DNA of 41,921 bases, taken from a virus. Lineage: Duplodnaviria; Caudoviricetes. This document shows, in pieces, positions 2,357-21,022 of this stretch (positions are counted from its first letter, which is position 1; the number at the start of each line of letters is the position of its first letter). The stretch is from IMG/VR virus record IMGVR_UViG_3300031673_000151, positions 1 through 41,921 of that record. One strand, 5' to 3'. The position numbers were made by a program, and so were the translations under genes. The notes under the pieces are model-generated. The model was given only the letters and a program-made list of their open reading frames with translations. It ran no database searches and was not told the origin of the DNA.

Positions 2357-3193
2357 ATGAGTACCGAAAAAACGAATGTCGCACAGATCAAGCAATCTCT
2401 TCCGGCGCTCGCTATGAGCGAGGACGAACTGATATCTGTGTTGACCACGAGCCTTTACCCTGGCGCGGCAATCCAGAGCATCAAGATGGTGCTGGGATAC
2501 TGCAAGGCAACCGGACTTGACCCCATGCAGAAGCCGGTTCACATCGTCCCGATGTGGGACAAGAACACCAAAGCGATGCGCGATGTGGTCATGCCCGGTA
2601 TCGGCCTGTATCGCACCCAGGCGGCACGATCTGGAAACTATGCTGGCGTGACAGAGCCGGAGTTCGGAGAGGACATTACAGAAGATGTCGGCGGCGTGCG
2701 TATGACGTTCCCGAAGTTTTGTAAGGTAACGGTGAAACGGGCCATTCACGGCGGCGCAGTTGTCGATTTCACGGCTACTGAGTTCTGGAAAGAAAACTAC
2801 GCGACAGCGGGTAAGGATTCGACAGCGCCTAATGCGATGTGGAAAAAACGGCCATATGGGCAAATAGCGAAGTGTGCAGAAGCCCAGGCGTTGCGCAAAG
2901 CATTCCCAGAATTCGGCGCTGCGCCAACTGCCGACGAAATGGAAGGCAAGCCGTTTGAAGGAGAAACCATCGACGGATCGACGGGCGAGATCATGCCGAA
3001 GAATACCGGCAATCCGGTGCTGGAAGAATGCAGCGCAGAGAAGTTCGAGCAGAACCAAGCCGCATGGCGTGATTTGGTTGTTTCTGGTAAGAAAACCGCT
3101 GATGCGCTTATCGCCATGTTAAGCACGAAGGCAATATTAACCGATGACCAGAAGCTGACGATTGATAGCTGGTCGCATGAAGGGGATCAATAA
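2357..3193 (+). CDS. bet: phage ssDNA annealing recombination protein Bet (RecT/Bet family)
   Basis: YCKATGLDPMQKPVHIVPM, GIGLYRTQAARSG and WKKRPYGQIAKCAEAQALRKAFP motifs; adjacent to an exonuclease. Confidence 0.92.
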   Translation: MSTEKTNVAQIKQSLPALAMSEDELISVLTTSLYPGAAIQSIKMVLGYCKATGLDPMQKPVHIVPMWDKNTKAMRDVVMPGIGLYRTQAARSGNYAGVTEPEFGEDITEDVGGVRMTFPKFCKVTVKRAIHGGAVVDFTATEFWKENYATAGKDSTAPNAMWKKRPYGQIAKCAEAQALRKAFPEFGAAPTADEMEGKPFEGETIDGSTGEIMPKNTGNPVLEECSAEKFEQNQAAWRDLVVSGKKTADALIAMLSTKAILTDDQKLTIDSWSHEGDQ

Positions 3194-4947
3194 TGAAAAC
3201 GCACTCGCTAATCCAAGGCAGCAAAGAATGGCACCAGCATAGGCTGTCACACTTTAACGCCAGCGATGCCCCGGCCATGATGGGCGTATCACCCTACAAG
3301 ACGCGCAGCAAACTTCTTGAAGAAACGGCGACCGGACTTGTTGACGCTGAATTCGATGAAGCCACGCAGCGCCGCTTTGCTGACGGCCACCGCTTCGAGA
3401 GACTGGCGCGCCCTCTTGCCGAAGAAATCGCCGGGCAAGACCTTTACCCGGCAACTGGTTCCGAAGGAAAGCACAGCGCCAGCTTCGACGGAATTACTAT
3501 GTGCGAGTCGGTCATATTTGAACACAAAACCTTGTCTGACCGGATTCGCGCAGCCAAAAGCGCGTCTGAACTCCCCAAAGACCTGCGCATTCAGATGGAA
3601 CACCAACTCCATGTATCAGGTGCAGAGAAATGCCTGTTCATGGCGTCCGTGTGGGATGAGGGCGACGAACTTGTTGAGGAAATCCACTACTGGTACATGC
3701 CCGACTTGGATAGCCGTTCTTGCATTCTAGACGGCTGGTCTCAATTCGAGAAAGACCTTGCCGCCTACGTTCCCCGAGAGATCGCCGAGAAGCCCCAAGC
3801 CGAATCAGTAATAGCCCTTCCCGCCCTTCTGATTACCGCCAAAGGTGAAGTGACCAGTACCAACATGCCGTCCTTCAAGGATGCCGCCAGAACGTTCCTC
3901 GCCAAGATCAACCGGACGCTGGAAACAGACCAGCAGTTTGCCGATGCCAAAGAATCCGCCAAGGTGTTGCGTGAAACCGCCGTCAAGCTCAAGGCGAAGA
4001 AAGAGGAAATGCTAGAGCAAACGGCCAGCATTGGCGAAGTGGCGCGGGAGATTGACCTGATTGTCGAAACATTCAACAAGACAGCCCTGGCGCTGGAAAA
4101 GGACGTGAAGGAAAAAGAGATTTCAATAAAGGTGGATATTGCAAACGCTGCAAAGGTGGCGTATGCGGCGCACGTTGCTGCGCTTGAAGCCGAAATAAGC
4201 CCTATTCGCTTGGTTTTGCCTGTTCCTGATTTCGCTGGCACCATGAAAAACCAGCGCACAATTGCCAGTTTGCACGACAAGGTTGATGGGGCGCTTGCGA
4301 ATGGCAAGATTGAGGCTGATTCAGTCGCCAAGGACATCCGCGCCAAACTGGCGTGGTGCAAAGATAACGCTGACGGCATGTCGTTCCTGTTCCCTGACCT
4401 ACAGCAGATCATCGTCAAGCCGATGGATGATTTTACGCTTCTCATCACCATCCGGATTAAGGATCACAAGGACGCCGAAGCGCTAAAAGCCGCTGAAATA
4501 ATTGCCAAGGCAGATGCAGCAGCAGCCGCCAAACTGGAATCAGAGCGCGCCGCAATGCAAGCCGACGAAGAGCGCAAGTCCTGCGAGAAGGTTGCGGCGG
4601 AACAGGCAGCAGAGCGCGCAAATGTTGAGGCAGAAGCCAAGGCGCAAAAAGCGCTTGACGACCTTGAGGAAGAAACGCTACGGAAACAGGAAGCGGCAGA
4701 GTCCAAGAAAACGCCGGCGGAAGAGCCGCGGCCAGATCAGGTAGTGGTTGGCGTCGATCTGGACAATTCCGGCGCAGATCAAGCCGTTCGCAATATGTCG
4801 TCGGGCAAGCGTGTTCAACCTGTGCCGATCATCATTGACCGGCCTACAGATGCCGAGATTATCGGCGCGCTGGCGGTGCGTTTTGCGGTATCCGAGCAGA
4901 CTGTGAAGAGCTGGCTGGCCGACATGAACCTGGAGGCCGCAGCATGA
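3193..4947 (+). CDS. YqaJ/lambda-Exo-like exonuclease with long coiled-coil C-terminus
   Basis: QGSKEWHQHR, ASDAPAMMGVSPYKT, GHRFE, SASFDG, EHK and QMEHQL motifs; coupled to bet. Confidence 0.9.
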   Translation: MKTHSLIQGSKEWHQHRLSHFNASDAPAMMGVSPYKTRSKLLEETATGLVDAEFDEATQRRFADGHRFERLARPLAEEIAGQDLYPATGSEGKHSASFDGITMCESVIFEHKTLSDRIRAAKSASELPKDLRIQMEHQLHVSGAEKCLFMASVWDEGDELVEEIHYWYMPDLDSRSCILDGWSQFEKDLAAYVPREIAEKPQAESVIALPALLITAKGEVTSTNMPSFKDAARTFLAKINRTLETDQQFADAKESAKVLRETAVKLKAKKEEMLEQTASIGEVAREIDLIVETFNKTALALEKDVKEKEISIKVDIANAAKVAYAAHVAALEAEISPIRLVLPVPDFAGTMKNQRTIASLHDKVDGALANGKIEADSVAKDIRAKLAWCKDNADGMSFLFPDLQQIIVKPMDDFTLLITIRIKDHKDAEALKAAEIIAKADAAAAAKLESERAAMQADEERKSCEKVAAEQAAERANVEAEAKAQKALDDLEEETLRKQEAAESKKTPAEEPRPDQVVVGVDLDNSGADQAVRNMSSGKRVQPVPIIIDRPTDAEIIGALAVRFAVSEQTVKSWLADMNLEAAA

Positions 4948-5081
4948 TGTTCAAAAACGCAATGGTTTTCCTGATAGCGCCGGGCTTTCGCGTCGACGCA
5001 ACCATGTTGACGCGCCAGATCGCCAGCGCATGCGGGAGCTTGGTGATGCCCGCTAACTCAACGGTAAATGGCGCCGCATGA
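4944..5081 (+). pseudogene. rdgC: 5' fragment of recombination-associated protein RdgC, running into a half attC site
   Basis: MMFKNAMVF...ACGSL resembles the RdgC N-terminus (MWFKN...PCGS). It is ATGA-coupled to the exonuclease and ends after 45 aa. Confidence 0.55.
5051..5077 (-). other. half attC site (R'/L' arm only)
   Basis: + strand CGCTAAC-TCAAC-GGTAAAT matches the left arms of the intact sites (e.g. GGCTAAC-GTATA-GGTAAGT); no partner arm was found. Confidence 0.55.
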
Positions 5082-5099
5082 CCAAGCCAAACGAAACCA

Positions 5100-5298
5100 C
5101 TGGCGCCGATTCGGCGCACGGTGGCGAGGGATTTCATGGGGTTTGGAAGCAACAGCCACAACAAGGCGGCGACTACCGCCACGTGGACTGTACCGGGATT
5201 GGCAGCGGATAGATCGCGCTGCAATGGCTGACGGCGCAAGGGCGATAACTGAAGTGCTTTGGCTTTCTCCGCGATGCCAAAGCGCTGATTTGTTTTAG
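5100..5298 (+). pseudogene. collapsed remnant of a Dam-like (D12 class) DNA adenine methyltransferase
   Basis: Three short motifs in three frames, in the expected order: RRTVARDFMGFGSNSHNK, GGDYRH and LYRDWQRIDRAAMADGARAITEVLWLSP. Confidence 0.55.
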
Positions 5299-5300
5299 GC

Positions 5301-5363
5301 GGCTAACGTGCGAATTCAGGGGACTGAGCGAAGCGAAGTTCCCGCTGGAATGAAAGGTTAGAC
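5301..5363 (-). other. attC site (63 bp)
   Basis: - strand GTCTAAC CTTTC ATTCCAGC ... CCTGAAT TCGCAC GTTAGCC; R''-L''-L'-R' order with an extra base in L''. Confidence 0.9.
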
Positions 5364-5537
5364 ATGAAAGTAGCCCCAAAATATGCAAACCAGAAATTCG
5401 GCGGTTTTAGCACGATGACCTTTACCAGACCATCGGCCTGCAAGCACAACGATGGTTGGTATGTGAATGTGATGTTTTGGATATTCAAGAAGCGCATATT
5501 TGTATGCTCTAAATGTGGTTCACACTTCGATGCCTAA
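5364..5537 (+). CDS. cassette ORF, small Cys/His protein (57 aa)
   Basis: MKVAPKYANQ...CKH...FVCSKCGSHFDA*. It exactly fills the inter-attC space and its stop TAA lies inside GCCTAAC. Confidence 0.65.
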   Translation: MKVAPKYANQKFGGFSTMTFTRPSACKHNDGWYVNVMFWIFKKRIFVCSKCGSHFDA

Positions 5538-5601
5538 CGCCTGAGATAACCGGAGCGACGCGGCTTTATCGCGGCGCGTCCGGTTGAACGATGGGTTCGG
5601 C
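5532..5601 (-). other. attC site (70 bp)
   Basis: - strand GCCGAAC CCATC GTTCAACC GGACGCG...CGCTCC GGTTATC TCAGGC GTTAGGC. Confidence 0.9.
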
Positions 5602-5625
5602 GGCAATTTACGGAGGACGAAAGAA

Positions 5626-5904
5626 ATGAAAGAAATGACCGATGACCAGAAGGCTGCGGCCTACTACAAGTTTGGGGCGCTGCATGAAGCCCCGCCGTTT
5701 GTGCCGGCGACAGTTCGGACGACGCGCACGCTGTATGGGGATTTTCCATTCCGCGGCGCGGGCGTCCTGGCCGGGGACCACGAATGCAGAAGCAACAAGT
5801 GGGGCGCGGTGAGCGTGACGGACCGAGCCGGAAACCAACTTGGCTTGAGGCTGAATGAATTTGAGCCGCTGACATGGCGCGAGAACTTGCCGCCGAACGT
5901 GTAG
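5626..5904 (+). CDS. cassette ORF, hypothetical protein
   Basis: GGAGGA RBS; the ORF ends ...PPNV* inside the next attC. Confidence 0.75.
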   Translation: MKEMTDDQKAAAYYKFGALHEAPPFVPATVRTTRTLYGDFPFRGAGVLAGDHECRSNKWGAVSVTDRAGNQLGLRLNEFEPLTWRENLPPNV

Positions 5905-5955
5905 CTAAGGGGCTGCGCCGCTTTTGCGCAGTCCCGCTTGAGCGTAGGGTTAGCC
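5892..5955 (-). other. attC site (64 bp)
   Basis: - strand GGCTAAC CCTAC GCTCAAGC GGGACTGCGC...GCGCAGCC CCTTAGC TACAC GTTCGGC. Confidence 0.92.
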
Positions 5956-5976
5956 GCCTGCGCCCCGGTTTATTTT

Positions 5977-6026
5977 GAAACTATTTCAATAAAACGCTTG
6001 ACGGAGTGAAATAGTTTCTATAATAT
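5977..6026 (+). promoter_or_regulatory. sigma70-like promoter with flanking 12-bp inverted-repeat operator
   Basis: TTGACG (5998-6003), 17-bp spacer, TAATAT (6021-6026). GAAACTATTTCA (5977-5988) and TGAAATAGTTTC (6007-6018) are perfect reverse complements. Confidence 0.75.
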
Positions 6027-6070
6027 AGCGACACGGTTGAGAGAAACCGGATAACCGAGGAGTAGCTAAC

Positions 6071-6457
6071 ATGAAACTACAATATCAACTGAGCAACGGG
6101 AATTGGGTCAACTGCAAAAAATCTGACACAGATGACCGCACCGATGAATTTTTAGCACAATGCGCAGAATACAAAAATATCAGCATTGATGAGGTTCTGG
6201 CGATTTTGGCGACCGGTAAATCAGTTGCGAACTGTAGTGGATGGTCGAATGAATGCCGTGACGGTGAGATTGTTGAGGCTAAAACAGCAGCATTTGCTGC
6301 GCAACGTGCCGCCGCCGAGGCTGCTGAGATACCCGCCAGACACTGCGCTGTAAATCATGCGGCCAAACCGGGCGTCGTGGCGCATACCAATTTTCTACTA
6401 ACCCACCGTCTGGCCGTTGCGACGATTGCTGCTAATTTACAGGAGACACAGACATGA
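6071..6457 (+). CDS. cassette ORF, hypothetical protein
   Basis: GAGGAG RBS; first gene after the internal promoter. Confidence 0.75.
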   Translation: MKLQYQLSNGNWVNCKKSDTDDRTDEFLAQCAEYKNISIDEVLAILATGKSVANCSGWSNECRDGEIVEAKTAAFAAQRAAAEAAEIPARHCAVNHAAKPGVVAHTNFLLTHRLAVATIAANLQETQT

Positions 6458-6897
6458 AAACCATAACCGTAGCCGCATCAAAAAATGACACACGCGCCTA
6501 TGCTGTGCGTAAATTCAGCAACGCACCGGATTTAAAATACCTGCGCAAAATATCGCCGGACAGGAACGAACTGACAGAATTGGCAGCATTCCTGTTTGAC
6601 AACTGCCCGCCAGTGGTGGATGGGTATTACCCGGCATTCGACCACGCCAGCCGCGTAGTTTGCTACAACGGCAAAACCGAGGCCTATATGATGCGTTTGG
6701 AGGGGCGCAAAAACGCCGAGGGATATATCCGCTGCTACGATCTGGAAAATGTACCGAGCAAAATTCAGGACTGGAAATTTGACGTGATTCGCCACGACCA
6801 GTCGGACACCGGATATTGGAATTTGCAGGCCGCGAAAATGCTGGGTGCCGGTGTTGTGCGGATCACTATCGGCAGCAGCGAATGGGCGGCACAATGA
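6454..6897 (+). CDS. cassette ORF, hypothetical protein
   Basis: AGGAG RBS, ATGA overlap, 147 aa. Confidence 0.75.
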   Translation: MKTITVAASKNDTRAYAVRKFSNAPDLKYLRKISPDRNELTELAAFLFDNCPPVVDGYYPAFDHASRVVCYNGKTEAYMMRLEGRKNAEGYIRCYDLENVPSKIQDWKFDVIRHDQSDTGYWNLQAAKMLGAGVVRITIGSSEWAAQ

Positions 6898-7061
6898 CAC
6901 CATCCGAACAGTGCAAAGCGGCAGGGCTGAAAAACCTTGCCGAACTTGCCGCGATCAGCAGTGCCAGTACACGAACGCTGATTAACTGGCACAGAGACAA
7001 GCCATCGCTGTTTGCGACCGTCGTTGCTGGGGCGGTCGTGATTAAGGCGGCTAACGTATAG
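6894..7061 (+). CDS. small HTH-like DNA-binding protein (55 aa)
   Basis: MTPSEQCKAAGLKNLAELAAISSASTRTLINWHRDKP shows a helix-turn-helix pattern; ATGA overlap; ends in attC. Confidence 0.7.
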   Translation: MTPSEQCKAAGLKNLAELAAISSASTRTLINWHRDKPSLFATVVAGAVVIKAANV

Positions 7062-7111
7062 GTAAGTGGCGGGAGCGATAGCGACCGTCCCGCTTGACCG
7101 CAGGGTTGGGC
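7049..7111 (-). other. attC site (63 bp)
   Basis: - strand GCCCAAC CCTGC GGTCAAGC GGGACGG...CCCGCC ACTTACC TATAC GTTAGCC. Confidence 0.9.
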
Positions 7112-7133
7112 GGCGCATTTTGGAGTACACAAG

Positions 7134-7391
7134 ATGATTGAAACTGGAGATGTGGTTTTGCACGAACCAAGCGGCGAAGAGTGGCTTGTTGCATTCGTGG
7201 AAGATGGAAGATTGAGCTGGCTTGGATGGACGGAGGGAACGGCGAACGTGGCGGATTGCAAGCTGGTAAAAAAGGGAACACAGGAATACCGAGATATTTG
7301 GCAGCGCGACATGCTCAGATTACCAGATAGCGATATTCGTGGACGGTGGGCAAGAAATCACGTGACGCCCAACGTAAAGGTAAGCGGGTGA
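7134..7391 (+). CDS. cassette ORF, hypothetical protein
   Basis: GGAG RBS; the C-terminus ...PNVKVSG* is encoded by an attC arm. Confidence 0.75.
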   Translation: MIETGDVVLHEPSGEEWLVAFVEDGRLSWLGWTEGTANVADCKLVKKGTQEYRDIWQRDMLRLPDSDIRGRWARNHVTPNVKVSG

Positions 7392-7466
7392 CCACGGCGC
7401 TACAAATGCAAGACGAAGCCACCAGCGGGGCTGCCGTGGGTGCTCCGCTTGACCGAGAGGTTAGGC
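7367..7466 (-). other. attC site (100 bp)
   Basis: - strand GCCTAAC CTCTC GGTCAAGC GGAGCACCCACGGC...GCCGTGGTCACCC GCTTACC TTTAC GTTGGGC. Confidence 0.9.
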
Positions 7467-7915
7467 CCCAGCCTGCCGCCGCAGTGCTGGCGTATGTGGA
7501 AGCACTGAGCCGCAAGCACTACGAGGAAATAGGATTCCTGCCGAAGCCACGGCTTGAGCAGTACCACCAAGCAGGCCGGCTCTGGATGCAGACCGAGAAC
7601 GACGACCTGTGCGGCTTCTTGGTGTGGGGCAATGGCTGGCCGGCGCTGCGCGTGTACCAAGTTTGCATCCAGTACGACGCCCAACGCAGAATGCACGGCG
7701 CAGAGTTGGTGGGCAGGCTGATCCGCAAGGCCGAGGCGGAAGGATACGAACGAATCTCGGCCTGGGTGGCTGACGACATACCGGCAAACGACTTCTGGCA
7801 TTCGATGGGCTTCCAGTTTCACGGGCAGCGTGCGGGAGGCTCGAAGCGAGGCAGGATGCACAACGCCTGGGTCTACTGGTGCTCATCCCCGGCGCAGATG
7901 TCGCTGATTGGGTAG
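7406..7915 (+). CDS. cassette-borne GNAT-family N-acetyltransferase
   Basis: VCIQYDAQRRMHGAELV (acetyl-CoA motif A) and ANDFWHSMGF (motif B); the start codon is uncertain and probably lies in the attC loop. Confidence 0.8.
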   Translation: MQDEATSGAAVGAPLDREVRPQPAAAVLAYVEALSRKHYEEIGFLPKPRLEQYHQAGRLWMQTENDDLCGFLVWGNGWPALRVYQVCIQYDAQRRMHGAELVGRLIRKAEAEGYERISAWVADDIPANDFWHSMGFQFHGQRAGGSKRGRMHNAWVYWCSSPAQMSLIG

Positions 7916-7960
7916 AACGTAATTTAGGCATCAAAAGTGAAATATAATCCTGGCATAGCC
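7912..7960 (-). other. candidate attI-like site terminating the array
   Basis: - strand ...TTATATTTCACTTTTGATGCCTAAATTACGTTCTAC: a GTT core preceded by a degenerate L box (CCTAAA, compare attI1 CCCTAAAACAAAGTT), non-palindromic, at the position and polarity expected for attI. Confidence 0.5.
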
Positions 7961-7989: not shown

Positions 7990-8184
7990 ATGAGCTTTGC
8001 AGACTGGAAAAAACGCTCCAAGGTTTATCAGATCTACAAGACCCATGCCGAACGATATGGGCACGATGTCGTAGCCCAGGCCGCATACAAAGCTGGCGAG
8101 CGCAAAGGCCGTAAAGATGCGGAAGCGGCAGCACAGCGGGCTATCGAGTTGCGGGCGCGATTGGTTGCGGAGTTGATGCCGTGA
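7990..8184 (+). CDS. hypothetical protein
   Basis: GGAGGA RBS; GTGA overlap with ninB. Confidence 0.65.
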   Translation: MSFADWKKRSKVYQIYKTHAERYGHDVVAQAAYKAGERKGRKDAEAAAQRAIELRARLVAELMP

Positions 8185-12529: not shown

Positions 12530-15500
12530 CTATTCCAATTTGGTCGCGTTCTTATCGGGGTGCTTTAGACGGTACAGCCTGTCATTAAGTTTTTTCATTT
12601 CTCCGGTTATTCGCATATCAATTAATTTGATACGCTCCTTTTCTGCGTCGTTCTCGATCAGGTGGCGCTTCTGCTTGCGCAGTTCTCCAACCTTACGCTC
12701 GGCCTGATTGGCAAACCAGAATAACCTGGCCTCCGGATTGTCACGCAGGTATTCCATTGCTTCTGCGCCTTTGCGATCCTTGCGCAGCCCTTTGATAGTG
12801 GCCTCATGCTCATTCAATTCCTTGAGGTTCGAATAGAAGGCGTTGCCTTCTGATGCTTGGCCTTCGGTGCTACCGTAAAATCTACCGATAAGCGGTATCT
12901 TGTGGCTTGGAAAATCCTCGCCGGTAAACATCGTTTCTGCCGTGGTCGTTGCCTTGCCAATCTCGCGCCCAACACCGCCGGTCACTTGTCCGATCAGGTA
13001 TTCGATCTGGTCTGCGGTCGGGCTGGCGATACCTTGCTTGTACTTGGTTCCGCCGGATAACGTGTTGATGGCTTCTGCAATCCACTTGGCCGGTGCGCTA
13101 GACACGTCCTTGGAGCGAGTGAATCCTGGGGTTGGATTGAGGCTGTTGAAATCCTCGCGCGCGATAGGTTTCCCCGTCCAGTCCTTGTTCATTCCGAGCG
13201 CGACTATCGGGTCGGTAATCGTGGGGGAAATAATCTGCGCAATCGGGGAAGATCCGCCTAGCGGGTTGGTTGCGTCAACCAGCACGCCCATCATGCTTTC
13301 AATCTTCTTACTTGCCCCCTGTCCGCCAGACAGCATCAGCTCCATGCTCAAGCGCCCGATGTTCGGCAGCACGTTGAAGCCTAGAGGCATTGGCAGCGTC
13401 AGGTATTTCTTATCGCCAATTGGCAGGATCAGGTTGCGCTCGCGCACAAAGTCCGGCGGTTCGTCATCGTCAAACCAGGCTGCGGCCAGCAACAGCGCTT
13501 GCATTGCACCTATGGTAATGCCGCCGTAGATAATTTTCTTGCCTGCCGGCCCTTTCAGGGCTGACGCCATCCGTGTCATGCCCTGCACGGAAGCATTAAA
13601 GAATGCGTACAGAGCGCCGGCCTGCATCGCCATTTCGCCCTTACGATTGAAGTTAACTGTGAGATTCTTGGCGAGACTCGCGGACTGCTCTATCGACATG
13701 CCGGATGCCTTGGCCTCCTTGTAAGCGGCCAGCCGCACCGTGTTTTCCATGGTTTCGTTGTAATCTGATAGCCAATCCAGCAACGGCCTTGCTCCCTTGT
13801 CAATCAGCATGGTTGCCGGGTTCTCCAGATAACCATTTGCAGTGATAACCTTTCCCCATGCGGTCTTTGTCCACCAGTCATGGTCGAGCGCGTGCTGGAT
13901 AGCTTCTGATCGGTCTGCGCCGGTCCTGAACATATCTCGGTATCCGGTCTTTCCTCCGGCTTCCGCGAACTCTTCCGCCAGTTTCGCCCAATCGACATCA
14001 AAGCCGCGCATCTTGTGCTTGATCGATCCGGCCAAAATCTTCCATACATCGGCCAGAATCTTGCCTTGCTTTCCGGACAATGGCGTGTCGGTCAAGTTAA
14101 TCATGGCTCCCTGCACGTCGCGCACCAGGTTGACTACGCCAAATATCGGGTTGTATTGGGTGTTGATCGCAGAGAAGTAGCGCGTCACCTTGGCGGTCGT
14201 TCCAAGCAGTTCGCCTAATTGCGAGCCGTCCAGATTCTTGATGGAGGCCGCCATGCGCACGGCGCGCTCGTTGCGCTCGTTGAAGAGGATCGAATGTTCC
14301 TCGATCTTGCCGGTATCTGGATTAGGGATCTTCACCATCACCACGTTGTCTTTTGACTTGTAGAGCGAGTCCACACGCTCGACTACCTGATCCACGCCGC
14401 CGATGGTTTCTACAACGCGCATCACGGGCGGCTTGTCCACCTTCCAGAAATCGGGGTTTGGATTCTCCTGGGCCAGCCCGTACAGCGCCATTACCACCCG
14501 GTTCTTCTCGCCACGAACTACCGCCTTGTCGCGCTGATTGGCAATGTTGCCGAGAATGTCCACCACCTCGCGCTTTGATCCGGTACGCTTCTTGGACTCG
14601 CTTCCGCGAATTGAAAACCCCTGCCCGGCGCCGGTGCCGTGCGCCATCGTGTCCATATCCTCACGATTAAGCGGGACGTAGAACCGATAGGCGTTCTCCA
14701 AAGTATCCTTGTCGGACTGAGAAATCAGCCCGTATTCCAGTTGCTGCTGGCGAGTCTTGGCGGTCATGGCATAAACCCGCTTCGCCAGCGCTTCAAACGT
14801 CTTGCGCTGTTCCGGCGATAGAGCGTCCATGTAGTCGTCGGCCTCCCGATCCGTCATGCCGGAACCGCCGTCCCACATTTCTTCATTGTCCGGATTGATC
14901 GAAGCAATATGCGCGTTCGCCTCATTGGCGTGTTTCGCCCACAGGTATTTGCCGAGATCTTCCTGTGACACCTTGCTCATGCGCATCACGGTAATCAGCG
15001 GATTGAGTTCGTTGTTCAGGAATTCATCAATCCGAGTCGCCGCCCTGCCGTGGAATAACTCTTCCTTCAGATAGGCGTTGATTGCGTCCTTGATCTCGCC
15101 AGACGTTTCCTTGATGGCTTTCTGGACTTGTTTGAGGTCGATATGCTTGTTCTGGATGCGATAGACAAAGTTATCCAGCATGGATGGCTCTGGAGCATCC
15201 CATGCGGAACCATCCGTTGCGGTAATGTCGGGTGTTTTGCGGGAATAGAGAATGCCTTGCAGTGGAGTTCCGCTTAATCCCCCTGGTACGATCCTGCCAA
15301 TCTGAGCCAGTAGATCTCCCCCTCTTTCGCCGCGCGCTGCGCGTGAAAAGGTATTTGTGGTAGCCGCTCTTTTAAGCGTTGCGCTTCCGATAATACGCCT
15401 GGATTGAACATCAGCAGGTGATCCAGTTCCTTGTCCTTCAGTTCGAGCGTTATTTCCGTTCCCGGCTTGAGCAGGATTTGCAGCATTTCTAGCTTGCTTT

Positions 15501-18500
15501 CCCGCGAGATATTCGTCAGTAGAGACTCGAAGCGCAGCCAATCCGCCTTCGTCCAATACGGATGATAATGCGCGCGCTCTCTCAAGAATTCCGCGCATGC
15601 CTCCGATTCGGTAGGCTTCGGCAACCGACTTTGATGCGCGGTCGAAATCGCCGGATGTGAATTCTTGCCCATCGGCGTACTCGAATCGCTGCTTATCGAA
15701 ATTGTAGGTGACATTCTTGATTTCTGGCGCCAAGTTGATGGTATTAGTGTAGCTGGTTTTCAGCAGCTCGGACAGATTGTTTTCGTCATCGCCAGTTACC
15801 CAGGTGATCGGGCGCGCAATCCCGCCCAGCACTGTCCCTTGCTTGGCTTCCGGGTTCATCTGGTATTCGTGCGGCTCCATGAAATGAGTCCCGCCGTAGC
15901 GCAGCGCCAGGGAAAGCATGTTTTCAGTACGCCGCAACAGCGCCACATCGGACAGGCCGGCCGGATCTCCGATGAACACCTTGCCGTTGGCCTCGGCGTA
16001 GCTGCCTACCAGCAGATACAACTTTGTCCCGCCGCTCACGCCTTCGCCCAGGTTGGAAGCGTTAAGCCATACCTGGCCATTATCGTTCTCGTATACCCAT
16101 GCATGAGTCTTGTCCGGCATGGTCACATACCACTTCTTGACCATACCCGATTTTTCTTCATCCAGGTCCGGCTTGTCATCGGCAACCTTCATGCCGGGGT
16201 CGATCTCGCGCGCAGATTCAACCATGTCGAAAGATTCTGGCGTAGGATTCTGGTAAAGATCCATGTCTCCGGCCATCATGCGCCAGAATGAAGTGGTTTT
16301 AACGTTTCCTCGGCTGGCAAGAATCCCGTTTTTCTCTCCAACAGAATAGGCGGAGCTTGTGATTTCGTTGCTATTCGCCAATGCACTATGGGTCATGTAA
16401 ACTAAGTCATCCACGGAAAGTGCGTTTATCCCGTCCATAAACTTCATGCGCTGCATTACCGGCATTGACTTACCAATGGCGCGGATTGCTTGACGGAGCC
16501 ATGCGACAAACTTCTGAGCGATGGACATGTCCCCGTTATTTTGCACGAGATAGGCCAAGGCTTCTTCCGGAACATTTTTGGCTGGAGTATCATCAGGAAC
16601 GCGATTAAACGCATCCCGAACCTGCTTGTTGCCCGCCTTGCGCATCATTTCAACTTGGTTCAGGATGGATTGGAACTCTGCGCTGTCTTTTCCGAGGTGT
16701 ATCGCATGGACCGCCAATTCGTGGAGGGCCAAACCGCGCAACTCTTTGCTGGTCGTGTCCTTGCTGATATTGTCGGCAATGAAGTAAGTGATTCCATCAG
16801 CGGGATTGAAGAAGGCGAGCGAGTTTCCGGTTTCGCCGTACTTGTTGTCTCGGCTGAATATGATATCAGAATTACCTGCGTCGAAATCGCCGTTGTTTCC
16901 AATAGCGGATTTAATTTGATTGGGTCGAAAAGCAATAAACACATCCATCGGCAAAGGGTCTGATGAATTTTTAATAATAACTCCGTCATAGCCGCCAGAT
17001 ATTGCCATATCGATTAAGTCGGAATATGTTTTATCTCTGTATCCTGTAATCTGTTCATGCACAAAAGGGTTCTGTAGCGAAAGAAATGCCGGGATGATGT
17101 TTGGCGCTATCGAATCCTTTTTCGCTTCCCATGTTTCCCCTTCTTGATCGCCTCCCGCCCAAGCCTGTTTACTCCATTGCATTTTATACGCGAAATCTCT
17201 ACCTTCTATGGATGTCTTCTTTAATTCCTCTAGTTTTGGAAGTAGCTCTCTAGCGCCTTTTGATAGTAAAGAAAATTCAATCGATGGGGATTGCCCGATA
17301 TTCGGATATTTTGTATCCAGCCAATGACTTATTAACGCACGTTCTTTTCTGTCTATTTTTCCATCAATATATGCGGCTTCAATAGCTGATCGAATTTCGT
17401 TTTCTGCAGCTATCGAACGCTGAATAATATTGTTGTTTTCGGCGTGATCTTTCGCGGAAAGCCTGTCATTCCGCATCGCAATATACGCGGATGAATTACG
17501 ATGAGCAGACTCGGCTTCTGAAATATTTTTAAGAAGCGGATTTATTTCTTCTTCTTGAAGCTTGTTGGCTTTCGGCGTCGGCGCAGAATAAGAGCCAGCC
17601 CGCTCTTCTTCTTCAAGCGCACGACGTTGCTTTATGAGATCTTGAAGTCTGTTATTCATGGTTATTATTGGGAGTTTGGTTGGCGCGTTTCTTTCTGCTT
17701 TCGCCAATAATTCATTGTATTTTGGGATCATCCCGCCAAACTCATATAAAGCCATTTGGTCGTAAACCGGATAGACCGCTGCGGCTCTGGCGTTGGTTGT
17801 GAAAAAGAAGCCTTTTTTCGCGCTTTGCGCGTTAGTATTGAATCCAAGTTTTTCTTGGTCAAATGCTTCTATATCTTGGTCTGTACCATGATAAACCACC
17901 AGCGGATTACCATCGGCATCGACCACCTTGCTATCCCCAAACCAAGATTTAAATGCTGGGGTGCCGGTTTGGCCCGACTTCGCAAACAGCGCATCCTTCC
18001 CAATCACCATCGCCGCCAGATCTGCCGTCACCACACGCGCCTTACCTGCTTCAAACAGTGCGGATATAGCGTTGCGCATCTTGCCGGTGAATGCGTTGAT
18101 TAGGGCGGGTTGCAGGGATTGGGTAGTATGGGGATTGGTGACGGGCTGATCGTTGCGGCTATACAGCGCCGTGCCTTGGTCGGTTTCCTTGGTTTCGATT
18201 GGTGCGGTTTCGCTCTTGGCTTCTTGCGCCGGTTTCGCTTCCACGTCCTTATTCACCAGCTTATCCACAGACTCAGCCAGCTTGGCGACTGATTCTGCCA
18301 TCTGAGTCATAGGGTCTTTGGGTTTGTCGGTTTCTGTGGGATTGGGCGCTGCGCTGTACTCAACTGAGATAGGCGCGTCGGGATTGGTGATTTTGTCTGG
18401 CTGAAGTGGTCCAACTACGCGCTCACCACCATTGAAATAGCGAATCTCAACCGGCATTTCTTTCCAGCCAAGTTTTTTGGCTGCCATGATTCGGTGATTG

Positions 18501-21022
18501 CCCTCGCTGACAGATGGGTTGCCATCCTGGTCAACTTCGATGTAAGGTACGCCAACATCTTTACCGGCGGCCATCGCTTTCACCAGATAGTCAAGATCTT
18601 CATTACGGACGTTTCTTTGCTCGCCGCGCTGTCCTTTGATGATAGCCAAAACAGAAACAGGAACGGTCACATTGCCATCAAAACGGCCAGTGACTTTGCC
18701 CATGTGGCGATAAATTCCGTGCTCGTTTTTTCCATCATCAATGGTTTCTTGGCGCTTTTCGTTAAGCCAGTATTCATTTGGCACATCTGTTTTTAATTTT
18801 GGCGCTTCAGATTTACGCACATGGCTTGTGGTGCCGTAAACGTCTGTCGCTTTCGCAAGAGCGGGCGCAGGCAACGGTTCCGATGATGCGATTTCAGCGC
18901 CATTCGGCACAATAGCAAACTTCCCCGGCTGTGTAGGGTGCGGGATAACCGCTACCTGATCCGTTCCGTTGCGATTGTAGGCGGCGGCGTTGGACTCGGC
19001 TTCCTTCTGTGTGCGGGCTTTAATCGCCTGCGCAACAGTCTGCGCGGCGGGTGCTTCGATGGCCATTCCGGGTGCGGGCGATTCCTGTTTAACCGTGGAT
19101 TTGGGTGGCGTGTCGGGTTGTGAAATGTCGCTATCTGCTATTTTCCCAAATGCAATAGATTCTGGCGTATTAAACGAATCGGCGCTTTTTACCCACTGAA
19201 TGTTGCTTGGCTTGGGCCGCAATTCTTCAAGAGACCCAACTCTCATTGCATCTGGCGAGACCGTATTAAAACGATCTTTCGAAATTAAGCTGATATGCGT
19301 CACTTCCGGGTATCGTGTTTTATAATCAGAGAACGAGGGTTTACCATTGATATCGTCGCTATTGGTAGATGTCCTGGCGCCAGGATTTCCCATAGTGGGT
19401 TCGCCACTCTGCCCATTAACTGGTGTTACATCACTCCCCTCGTACGGGCTTCGTACAAGTTCATCCGTTCCGCCGAAGGGTGCAATATCTCCGGGAGTTG
19501 GCAATACTCCTGATTGGATAGGTAGGCCGTCTCCGCGAAGGCTTGCATCAGCCACGCCTCCTGGTAACTCATTATTCCCGTCTTGACGGCTCGCCGCAGG
19601 TATTTCTGCAATCTCTGATCCAATTGAGCCATTATTCACCTCCGATTGTCTGCGGGTTATTTCTGTGCGCGCCATCTCACCGGCTTTGCTATCGTACTTG
19701 GCGAGATTCGCAAGCGAGCTATCCTTGATTTCGTCTACGCGCTTTCCGAGAATGCGCGGCATGTCGTTTTTGAATGTGTCTGCGGTGGCCGGGGTGACGT
19801 TGCCTTGCGTGTCAACCGTCAATGTCGGGCCGGTAGCATCGCTGGCTGGCGGCAACGCAAGCAAACCCCTATCCAAGAAGCCGGTGGTGGGTTCCGTGCG
19901 GTCTATCTCGCGCTGGTTCGCGTTTGGCAATGCCAGTGATTCACGACGAGCGGTTACGTCGTCGAATTCTTGGCTTGCGAAGTCGGCCAGCTCTTGGGAT
20001 GGCGTATAGGGCGAAGATGGGAATGGGATAGTGGGCGCGCTGGTACTGGTTACGCTTTCCTTGAATGCTTTGATTGCGGTGTCGGTATCGGGTTGAGCGA
20101 GGATGTCGGATGGTGTCGCCGGGGTTGGCGCCGATTTCCCGCCAAAGAATCCGCCGCCTACTCCGCCCATGACGCCGCCAGTAACCAGACCCATTGCGCC
20201 GGACTCTGGCACGCCTTCCATTATTGGCTTGTCCATGGCGACGTTCTGCCATAACTGCTCTTGCATGGATTGCGGCATTTCTTCAAATGCGCCTTCTGAT
20301 ATGCCCCCTTCTACCAGTTTGCGAGCAAATGCTTTATTGCTAAACTTCGCAGCGCCACCGGCAAGCATGGTGTCAACGTCTGCAATACCTAGCTTCTGCG
20401 ACAGCTTGCCACCCACTCCGCCGAATGCTGCTGCGCCAAGCGCACTGGCCCCAGCAGCGCCTATTTGCTTCGGCGTCATCAGCCCGTCGTCAGTTTGTTG
20501 GCGAATTTGTTCAGCGGCCAAGCCTCCGCCGACCACGCCTTCACCTATAGCGCCGGCAGCCCATGGGGCAACCTTGGCAGACCCGGCGACCAACCCTCTC
20601 CCGACAAGCCCGCCCGCGCCCATGGCTGGGAGCGATTCGACAATTGCATGAGCAATTGTGCTCGGATTCTGAACAGCGGCAGACGCTTTTCCAAGAAATC
20701 CGGTTGCGTCATTCAGATTCTTATTTGCTTCTTTTTGAGAGTCAGAATAATACTCATCAAGAAATGATTTAGCTTCTTCCGGCCTGAATCCAAGTTGCTC
20801 AAGCGCCTTCCCTGCGTATCCTCCGCTGACCAGATCTGCTAAGCCAACAATGGCTTCTGGTACGCCAATGGCGCCTTTGATTGCGGTTAAACCATAATCC
20901 GCCGCTCTGCGCGCCATTCCTGTTGGTTTTTCTATGGGTTTTGAAAGCCCTTCGATAGGCGTATCGTTTTCACCGTACCCGCCATACTCAACCAAAGAAT
21001 CGTTTTCCCCGTACCCGGCCAT
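12530..21022 (-). CDS. giant internal virion/ejection polyvalent protein (ParB-like, ART-like, zincin-like, LPD38-like domains)
   Basis: 2830 aa. Motifs: EGNHRIMAAKKLG..MPV (ParB-like); FKSWFGDSKVVDADGNPLVVYHGT...FFFTT...GYDGVII...NQIKSAIGNNGDFD (ART-PolyVal-like); HELAVH; and a C-terminal PPDFVRERNLILP...LPMPLGF region (LPD38-like). Confidence 0.85.
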   Translation of the reverse strand: MAGYGENDSLVEYGGYGENDTPIEGLSKPIEKPTGMARRAADYGLTAIKGAIGVPEAIVGLADLVSGGYAGKALEQLGFRPEEAKSFLDEYYSDSQKEANKNLNDATGFLGKASAAVQNPSTIAHAIVESLPAMGAGGLVGRGLVAGSAKVAPWAAGAIGEGVVGGGLAAEQIRQQTDDGLMTPKQIGAAGASALGAAAFGGVGGKLSQKLGIADVDTMLAGGAAKFSNKAFARKLVEGGISEGAFEEMPQSMQEQLWQNVAMDKPIMEGVPESGAMGLVTGGVMGGVGGGFFGGKSAPTPATPSDILAQPDTDTAIKAFKESVTSTSAPTIPFPSSPYTPSQELADFASQEFDDVTARRESLALPNANQREIDRTEPTTGFLDRGLLALPPASDATGPTLTVDTQGNVTPATADTFKNDMPRILGKRVDEIKDSSLANLAKYDSKAGEMARTEITRRQSEVNNGSIGSEIAEIPAASRQDGNNELPGGVADASLRGDGLPIQSGVLPTPGDIAPFGGTDELVRSPYEGSDVTPVNGQSGEPTMGNPGARTSTNSDDINGKPSFSDYKTRYPEVTHISLISKDRFNTVSPDAMRVGSLEELRPKPSNIQWVKSADSFNTPESIAFGKIADSDISQPDTPPKSTVKQESPAPGMAIEAPAAQTVAQAIKARTQKEAESNAAAYNRNGTDQVAVIPHPTQPGKFAIVPNGAEIASSEPLPAPALAKATDVYGTTSHVRKSEAPKLKTDVPNEYWLNEKRQETIDDGKNEHGIYRHMGKVTGRFDGNVTVPVSVLAIIKGQRGEQRNVRNEDLDYLVKAMAAGKDVGVPYIEVDQDGNPSVSEGNHRIMAAKKLGWKEMPVEIRYFNGGERVVGPLQPDKITNPDAPISVEYSAAPNPTETDKPKDPMTQMAESVAKLAESVDKLVNKDVEAKPAQEAKSETAPIETKETDQGTALYSRNDQPVTNPHTTQSLQPALINAFTGKMRNAISALFEAGKARVVTADLAAMVIGKDALFAKSGQTGTPAFKSWFGDSKVVDADGNPLVVYHGTDQDIEAFDQEKLGFNTNAQSAKKGFFFTTNARAAAVYPVYDQMALYEFGGMIPKYNELLAKAERNAPTKLPIITMNNRLQDLIKQRRALEEEERAGSYSAPTPKANKLQEEEINPLLKNISEAESAHRNSSAYIAMRNDRLSAKDHAENNNIIQRSIAAENEIRSAIEAAYIDGKIDRKERALISHWLDTKYPNIGQSPSIEFSLLSKGARELLPKLEELKKTSIEGRDFAYKMQWSKQAWAGGDQEGETWEAKKDSIAPNIIPAFLSLQNPFVHEQITGYRDKTYSDLIDMAISGGYDGVIIKNSSDPLPMDVFIAFRPNQIKSAIGNNGDFDAGNSDIIFSRDNKYGETGNSLAFFNPADGITYFIADNISKDTTSKELRGLALHELAVHAIHLGKDSAEFQSILNQVEMMRKAGNKQVRDAFNRVPDDTPAKNVPEEALAYLVQNNGDMSIAQKFVAWLRQAIRAIGKSMPVMQRMKFMDGINALSVDDLVYMTHSALANSNEITSSAYSVGEKNGILASRGNVKTTSFWRMMAGDMDLYQNPTPESFDMVESAREIDPGMKVADDKPDLDEEKSGMVKKWYVTMPDKTHAWVYENDNGQVWLNASNLGEGVSGGTKLYLLVGSYAEANGKVFIGDPAGLSDVALLRRTENMLSLALRYGGTHFMEPHEYQMNPEAKQGTVLGGIARPITWVTGDDENNLSELLKTSYTNTINLAPEIKNVTYNFDKQRFEYADGQEFTSGDFDRASKSVAEAYRIGGMRGILERARALSSVLDEGGLAALRVSTDEYLAGKQARNAANPAQAGNGNNARTEGQGTGSPADVQSRRIIGSATLKRAATTNTFSRAARGERGGDLLAQIGRIVPGGLSGTPLQGILYSRKTPDITATDGSAWDAPEPSMLDNFVYRIQNKHIDLKQVQKAIKETSGEIKDAINAYLKEELFHGRAATRIDEFLNNELNPLITVMRMSKVSQEDLGKYLWAKHANEANAHIASINPDNEEMWDGGSGMTDREADDYMDALSPEQRKTFEALAKRVYAMTAKTRQQQLEYGLISQSDKDTLENAYRFYVPLNREDMDTMAHGTGAGQGFSIRGSESKKRTGSKREVVDILGNIANQRDKAVVRGEKNRVVMALYGLAQENPNPDFWKVDKPPVMRVVETIGGVDQVVERVDSLYKSKDNVVMVKIPNPDTGKIEEHSILFNERNERAVRMAASIKNLDGSQLGELLGTTAKVTRYFSAINTQYNPIFGVVNLVRDVQGAMINLTDTPLSGKQGKILADVWKILAGSIKHKMRGFDVDWAKLAEEFAEAGGKTGYRDMFRTGADRSEAIQHALDHDWWTKTAWGKVITANGYLENPATMLIDKGARPLLDWLSDYNETMENTVRLAAYKEAKASGMSIEQSASLAKNLTVNFNRKGEMAMQAGALYAFFNASVQGMTRMASALKGPAGKKIIYGGITIGAMQALLLAAAWFDDDEPPDFVRERNLILPIGDKKYLTLPMPLGFNVLPNIGRLSMELMLSGGQGASKKIESMMGVLVDATNPLGGSSPIAQIISPTITDPIVALGMNKDWTGKPIAREDFNSLNPTPGFTRSKDVSSAPAKWIAEAINTLSGGTKYKQGIASPTADQIEYLIGQVTGGVGREIGKATTTAETMFTGEDFPSHKIPLIGRFYGSTEGQASEGNAFYSNLKELNEHEATIKGLRKDRKGAEAMEYLRDNPEARLFWFANQAERKVGELRKQKRHLIENDAEKERIKLIDMRITGEMKKLNDRLYRLKHPDKNATKLE

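Follow-up and report, generated by a model that had tools for sequence, protein, structure and literature searches.

An inverted, phage-type array of integron cassettes in a Caudoviricetes virus record

The virus record IMGVR_UViG_3300031673_000151 (Caudoviricetes) is a linear contig of 41,921 bases, 72% complete, and was analysed over its entire length (the window). Within 2.2 kb it packs five attC sites with no integrase nearby, that is, a cluster of attC sites without integrase (CALIN); it is not a complete integron, since no intI lies beside the array and ninB comes after it. Here we assign this array to an inverted, phage-type class of integron cassettes, in which the genes run antisense to their sites. 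The end complementarity flagged in a preliminary description of the stretch is an ordinary property of cassettes. We consider it likely that this array, in the early region of a phage, was assembled by an integron integrase (IntI) that is absent from the contig.

The sites point to the minus strand. Read on that strand, all five, at 63–100 bp, have the attC layout R''–5 nt–L''(8)–loop–L'(7)–5/6 nt–R' with AAC and GTT triplets (attC sites span 57–141 bp according to PMC5027507). Site 0, for example, reads GTCTAAC, 5 nt, ATTCCAGC ... CCTGAAT, 6 nt, GTTAGCC on the minus strand (scanner score 28.1). At five of five sites the 8-nt inner box L'' carries an extra C at position 4 on the minus strand, hence a G on the plus strand. 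Four sites scored 28.1–32.8 with the scanner, compared with 10 hits and a best score of 27.6 in 20 resampled windows; site 1 was missed by the stricter scanner, had been found on the minus strand in an earlier scan and was added by hand. When written on the plus strand, sites 1 and 2 align to attCs of class 1 integrons whose genes sit on the opposite strand (78.5% alike to the blaOXA-21 attC and 80% alike to the blaOXA-198 attC, respectively). All the genes here lie on the plus strand, antisense to the sites, and the canonical order of a gene followed by its own attC is not found. Canonical minus-strand sites combined with plus-strand genes therefore place the crossover at AA^C on the plus strand and assign the upstream site to each gene. 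The features of the array are as follows.

5051–5110, minus strand: attC-like half site, apparently truncated, at the left array edge, followed by cassette remains ending at 5306
5301–5363, minus strand: attC site 0, 63 bp, own site of cassette K1
5364–5537, plus strand: K1 gene, 57 amino acids with cysteine-pair motifs; cassette 5307–5537
5532–5601, minus strand: attC site 1, 70 bp, own site of K2
5626–5904, plus strand: K2 gene, 92 amino acids, unnamed family; cassette 5538–5897; stop inside the next site
5892–5955, minus strand: attC site 2, 64 bp, own site of K3
5898–7054, plus strand: K3 cassette with a promoter-like head and three genes (open reading frames (ORFs) 6071–6457, 6454–6897 and 6894–7061)
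7049–7111, minus strand: attC site 3, 63 bp, own site of K4; scanner call
7134–7391, plus strand: K4 gene, 85 amino acids; cassette 7055–7372; final residues read into the next site
7367–7466, minus strand: attC site 4, 100 bp, own site of K5; scanner call and fold
7406–7915, plus strand: K5 gene, GNAT acetyltransferase of 169 amino acids (PF00583, E 2e-7); cassette 7373–7917
7912–7934, minus strand: AAC box, 4 nt and GTTAGGC-like box with the hairpin missing, apparently a collapsed attC
7990–8184, plus strand: gene of 64 amino acids, likely of a decayed sixth cassette

Judging from these sequence features, the preliminary description had the site orientation the wrong way round. It held that the units entered as circles by crossover at G^TT; they are recombined attC cassettes, but the extra base of the inner box and the class 1 alignments give AA^C rather than G^TT on the plus strand.

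Relatives of the cassettes show which site travels with which gene. For three window cassettes, relatives keep the cassette ends and differ in their neighbours right past AAC. Three viral contigs (L333, L334 and L335) share the last gene of K3 and its right end, and beyond AAC each of the four sequences, the window included, has different bases; L333 and L335 also retain the left end of K3 and its promoter-like head, with different middle genes and neighbours, and the upstream site in L335 is 97.6% like window 5919–5959. One relative, sharing 98% identity with K2, has the C-terminus LPPN-AALTERGGVK in place of the LPPN-V of the window, and K2 proteins 98% and 83% identical diverge right past the box-encoded PN. 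Similarly, a 94% identical relative of K4 ends TPNV where the window has TPNVKVSG, and in the related proteins P0001 (98%), P0002 and P0032 (94%) the divergence falls at or just past the PN(V) codons. The K5 relative in L286 (87%) also starts inside its upstream site, as read by eye, and its own ends match at 9/10, and L287 contains a K5 relative (76%) as a complete inverted cassette whose neighbours differ. Units running from the TT of one R' to the G of the next, with different neighbours, were thus found for K3 (L333 and L335), for the protein ends of K2 and K4, and for K5 (L287). The preliminary description had proposed this comparison, and related cassettes elsewhere do break at the core triplet beside different neighbours.

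The same assignment was examined in 11 related pairs drawn from all fetched viral and metagenome cassettes. Four of these share only the canonical own site (0.79–1.00 vs 0.35–0.56) and two share both sites, switching neighbours right past the own site; five are uninformative and none shows the reverse pattern. At two places of one viral contig (L066:3697-4215 and L067:4265-4776), a cassette and its own site are 100% identical, and the neighbours differ on both sides. Several further loci came up among the relatives. The K5 relative at L286:1915-2090 terminates in a bare AAC directly followed by apparent coding sequence, possibly an insertion at a secondary site. A K2 relative at L300:790-806 is preceded by a hairpin-less AAC box, likely a second collapsed site. 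A pattern match, L332, proved unrelated and was rejected.

Cassette inversion is systematic in viral contigs. We searched with a single strand-neutral attC pattern, which yielded 115 loci in viral contigs and 157 loci in 3 of 64 parts of the bacterial genomes; long flanks were available for 80 loci per set, of which 62 viral and 71 genome loci were scored. Among 200 viral cassettes, 150 were inverted, 13 same-sense and 37 unclear, corresponding to 51 inverted, 5 same-sense and 6 tied loci. In contrast, the 235 cassettes from bacterial genomes comprised 14 inverted, 171 same-sense and 50 unclear (1 inverted, 64 same-sense and 6 tied loci). Thus, about 9 in 10 scored cassettes are inverted in viral contigs, compared with about 9 in 10 canonical in bacterial genomes. 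A narrower pattern gave 22 inverted, 3 same-sense and 4 unclear cassettes (n = 29). The contig L296, which is identical to the window, was excluded from all counts. As a further check that does not rely on an ORF score, the longest ORF per strand was scanned against profiles: 27 of 74 viral cassettes had a PHROGs match in the inverted ORF and none of the 74 in the same-sense ORF, and in 40 of 74 prepared genome cassettes Pfam matches fell in 10/40 same-sense ORFs and 0/40 inverted ones. DNA-modification types account for 11 of the 27 identified viral cargo genes, all on other contigs. Purine/AT skew was tried as a test of the gene strand and rejected because viral and genome cassettes came out alike (AT skew is negative in 184/200 viral and 172/235 genome cassettes). 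The sole genome locus with mostly inverted cassettes, L158 (Rhodanobacter caeni), possibly lies in a prophage.

The preliminary description had started from complementary ends within each cassette, and all four pairs were located: GTTAGACAT at 5357 with ATGCCTAAC at 5530 (8/9), GTTCGGCGGCAA at 5595 with TTGCCGCCGAAC at 5887 (12/12), GTTAGCCGCC at 5949 with GGCGGCTAAC at 7046 (10/10, extending to 11/11) and GTTGGGCGGC at 7105 with GACGCCCAAC at 7364 (9/10). The outer boxes within each site are indeed mismatched in situ, pairing at only 2–3 of 4 non-triplet bases, and the own ends of the cassettes match at 15/16 core positions outside the shared triplet. For sites 1–4, own-end pairing is the top-scoring of 24 permutations. 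When the box of site 0 (5301) is admitted, the observed score is reached by 2/120 assignments at 10 and 12 nt and by 4/120 at 7 nt, because the box at 5301 is a repeat of that at 7049; a test on four cassettes has its floor at about p = 0.02–0.04, and the strong support comes from other loci. Own ends match at a mean of 6.7 of 9 positions in the 200 viral cassettes (4.4 in place) and at 7.3 of 9 in the 235 genome cassettes (4.9 in place). Own-end complementarity is a generic property of integron cassettes, as strong in bacteria. It arises because the own attC of a cassette is the one present in the circular form (the ACID definition, PMC2674596) and because the two outer boxes of one attC are complementary (PMC5027507). 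As a "footprint of real shuffling", the words used earlier, the complementarity records past recombination and carries no evidence for present shuffling.

We also rebuilt the excised circles in silico. For K1–K4 the predicted outer-box pairing P rose to 0.86–0.97, compared with 0.006–0.64 in place, as the preliminary description had expected of such a rebuild-and-fold check. Circles rebuilt in its own polarity fold as well (P 0.91–0.98). Folding was thus rejected as a polarity test, both readings giving P >0.86: being symmetric, neither own-end complementarity nor circle folding can separate the two polarities.

The box at 5301, the fifth cassette with its GNAT gene and the decayed array ends were absent from the preliminary description. 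On the right, K5 matches its own left end at 6/10 only, and beyond the collapsed site the sixth cassette has GGCATCAA at 7927 complementary to TTGATGCC at 8173; the homologue of its gene in viral locus L080 is an intact, complete inverted cassette. On the left, the half site at 5051 shows an AAC box, 5 nt, GGTAAATG and a short stem, with no right box and no scanner call. Genes and sites overlap throughout the array. The K1 stop TAA is part of the box of the following site, K2, K3 and K4 take their stop codons from the next site, each site supplies an in-frame stop 2–18 codons past AAC, and the likely K5 start codon (ATG 7406) lies in the loop of site 4. The K1 protein had no match in PHROGs, Pfam or NCBIfam; K2 has 30 homologues; the last ORF of K3 (6894–7061) is small and regulator-like (weak phrog_409 match, E 3e-5). 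A contig of 56.5 kb on record encodes the K4 protein. The promoter-like TTGACG at 5998 in K3 does not exceed chance expectation (2 matches, 1.7 expected). Sequence like site 2 (window 5896–5952) reached a depth in the thousands in three soil runs, compared with at most 13 for the phage; this site type is very common in those soil communities and occurs there with many different flanks.

A phage with a complete inverted integron suggests where cassettes enter. L006:4493-10308, with a near-identical phage in L008/L330, contains in order six inverted sites, a two-gene last cassette with 13/13 own ends, a hairpin-less bare core, intI on the strand of the cassette genes (TIGR02249, 420 bits) and a second tyrosine recombinase. 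The bare core is presumably attI, which would set the entry point at the right-hand end, in line with the minus polarity. The corresponding end of the window array holds the collapsed site at 7912–7934 and the likely decayed sixth cassette.

Several results weigh against an inverted array built by an absent IntI. No tyrosine recombinase (PF00589) was detected in the one contig, which is 72% complete, although the control recovered 14/14. Of 47 array-bearing viral records, only two, from near-identical phages, encode IntI; among the 10 such records with a completeness of at least 90%, one does. The rebuilt K5 circle folds poorly (P 0.20). The orientation counts are not independent, given that related contigs remain after identical segments were dropped, and the ORF caller was crude; published TJE1 is, unlike the window, canonical in the one cassette scored. 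An attC lies beside K2 relatives at 7 of 31 loci (all inverted, none called at 24) and beside K4 relatives at 1 of 6 viral loci (inverted, none called at 5). Many of the site-less loci lie on short contigs, and inspection by eye showed seven K2 loci to be plain genes. Cargo therefore also moves without sites. L334 retains only the right K3 end and 2 of the 11 pairs have the same cargo with different own sites; other recombination therefore also exchanges sites. Finally, assembled contigs of three public runs containing this DNA, one of them possibly its source, had no circle or cassette-deletion junctions, an absence that neither shows nor excludes rare excision, as contig assemblies drop rare forms, and contigs of the other two runs bridging sites 1 and 3 match the window. 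One joint, from 5951 to 7363, was rejected as a deletion, its side being 22 nt long; it is most likely a similar site of another organism.

Much of this would fit a frozen relic, in which the attCs are real and the array is now changed only by homologous or Red-type recombination that uses the sites as short homology. A contig without integrase, decayed array ends, excision not seen in contigs, the pairs with exchanged own sites and the annealing protein and exonuclease genes at 2357–4947 all favour such a state, but neighbours switch exactly at the core triplet, both in the relatives of window cassettes and in other pairs (L066/L067 included), and four cassettes retain near-perfect own ends. 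We regard the relic as unlikely, and it bears on present activity more than on origin. It is very unlikely that the sites are acted on by some different, non-IntI recombinase whose gene lies in the missing 28% of the phage. The contig is incomplete and 9 of 10 near-complete array-bearing viral records are without IntI; the sites nevertheless match class 1 integron attCs, the enzyme adjoining an inverted array is IntI, and IntI1 recombines phage attCs (PMC9892861).

The polarity of the preliminary description, with ordinary cassettes of a gene then its own attC and crossover at plus-strand G^TT, explains own-end complementarity and circle folds equally well, and top-strand recombination does occur at lower rates (PMC5027507). 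It puts the extra base on the wrong arm at 5/5 sites, however, and the upstream rather than the downstream site accompanies the gene, near-identical proteins diverge right past AAC, and K5 likely starts inside its upstream site; we hold this polarity to be highly improbable. Terminators, REP-like (repetitive extragenic palindromic) hairpins or chance repeats between ordinary phage genes would account for the same genes being found elsewhere without sites, but they can hardly be credited with the full attC layout, with four sites that outscore all 20 null windows, or with the precise exchange of neighbours in relatives. Terminator prediction made no call at the five sites, and no Rfam match to them appeared up to E 1. 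The preliminary description had likewise set such hairpins aside, rightly in view of the circle folds and of relatives breaking at the core triplet.

Integron biochemistry suggests a mechanism for an array of attC-type sites assembled by IntI. The enzyme cleaves the bottom strand, in its folded form, at AAC, and which strand is used depends on extra bases (PMC5027507). Here the plus, coding strand would be the recombinogenic bottom strand, folding when single-stranded, and IntI, most likely from the host or another phage, would act in trans and cut at AA^C. An excised unit would circularize, and its own two ends would rebuild a well-paired outer box, which would explain why own ends are complementary. 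Insertion of new units would take place on the right, as in L006. Transcription of the cassette genes likely comes by read-through from early promoters of the phage, with K2, K3 and K4 ending at the stop in the next site and K5 probably starting inside its own site. The window array may turn over slowly now, because both of its ends are decayed.

What inversion gains is likely a matter of expression: phage-type cassettes would be expressed in the phage operon, and ordinary host cassettes would land antisense and silent. If replication forks travel in the direction of the genes, inversion may also make the recombinogenic strand part of the lagging-strand template; excision rises when the bottom strand is on that template (PMC5371416). 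The positive GC skew over 0–12 kb of the window is only suggestive support, the origin not being in the contig. That most phage arrays sampled share the inverted layout suggests that phages likely maintain their own pool of exchangeable genes. It is possible, though we would stop short of calling it probable, that phages run their own branch of integrons, a shared pool of inverted cassettes made from phage accessory genes and shuffled by host or phage IntI, with inversion insulating both pools. If so, host defence cassettes would land silent in a phage array and phage cassettes silent behind a host promoter. Such arrays might also show cassettes being made from ordinary genes, since the same genes also occur without sites, which would make the old question of how cassettes originate testable.

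The array sits between the exonuclease gene (end 4947) and ninB (start 8181), just 3' of the annealing protein and exonuclease genes at 2357–4947. Up to 12.5 kb the genes are on the plus strand and include a single-strand annealing protein, a RecE-like exonuclease, NinB, NinG and a weak Q-like match; past 12.5 kb they are on the minus strand, with matches to head, tail and lysis proteins. Relatives of the phage, sought via the exonuclease, amounted to one distant locus without sites, and gave no same-phage comparison with other cassettes. A 45-amino-acid ORF at 4944–5081, 3' of the exonuclease, runs into the truncated left-hand site; it resembles the cut-off start of RdgC, a likeness that neither library nor structure search supported. 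Elsewhere in the window, 12530–21022 encodes a phage polyvalent protein of 2830 amino acids with LPD37, LPD38 and ART-PolyVal domains, and 27-bp tandem repeats lie at 11–145 inside a gene cut by the contig start.

Integron models assume that gene and site are co-oriented so that the integron promoter reads the genes, and the phage class reverses this. A single search pattern separates cassette design almost completely between viral contigs and bacterial genomes. The reversal would mean that phages use IntI to vary their accessory genes, and phage-borne cassettes would reach bacterial integrons antisense to the promoter, changing how they could feed them. Compared with bacterial integron cassettes, those of the window have the same site layout, 63–100 bp length, extra base, G^TT crossover on the site strand and own-end complementarity. 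They differ in that the gene runs against its site, the own site is upstream, the stop often comes from the neighbour's site and the start codon can lie in the loop, in the lack of Pc and intI and apparently of attI, and in their phage-type cargo.

Among phages, 17 CALINs have been reported, and IntI1 was shown to recombine five phage sites (Qi et al., 2023; PMC9892861). Like the window, these are attC clusters without integrase that carry small genes of unknown function, and site 2 matches a site in one of the 17, phage MW202573, where two scanner-called sites lie on the minus strand among plus-strand genes, apparently inverted as here. Genes antisense to attC are not described in the text or supplement of PMC9892861, and we found no paper on inverted or antisense phage cassettes in the literature searched, which mostly did not extend to subscription journals and bioRxiv supplements. 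The prophage integrons of Vibrio anguillarum and Shewanella (PMC9892861) resemble L006 in having IntI and cassettes inside a phage. The Vibrio case is described there as a portion of the chromosomal integron of the host; L006, unlike it, has inverted cassettes with intI on the strand of the cassette genes, and the window has no intI. Phage attC clusters are already published, and the inversion appears to be the new part.
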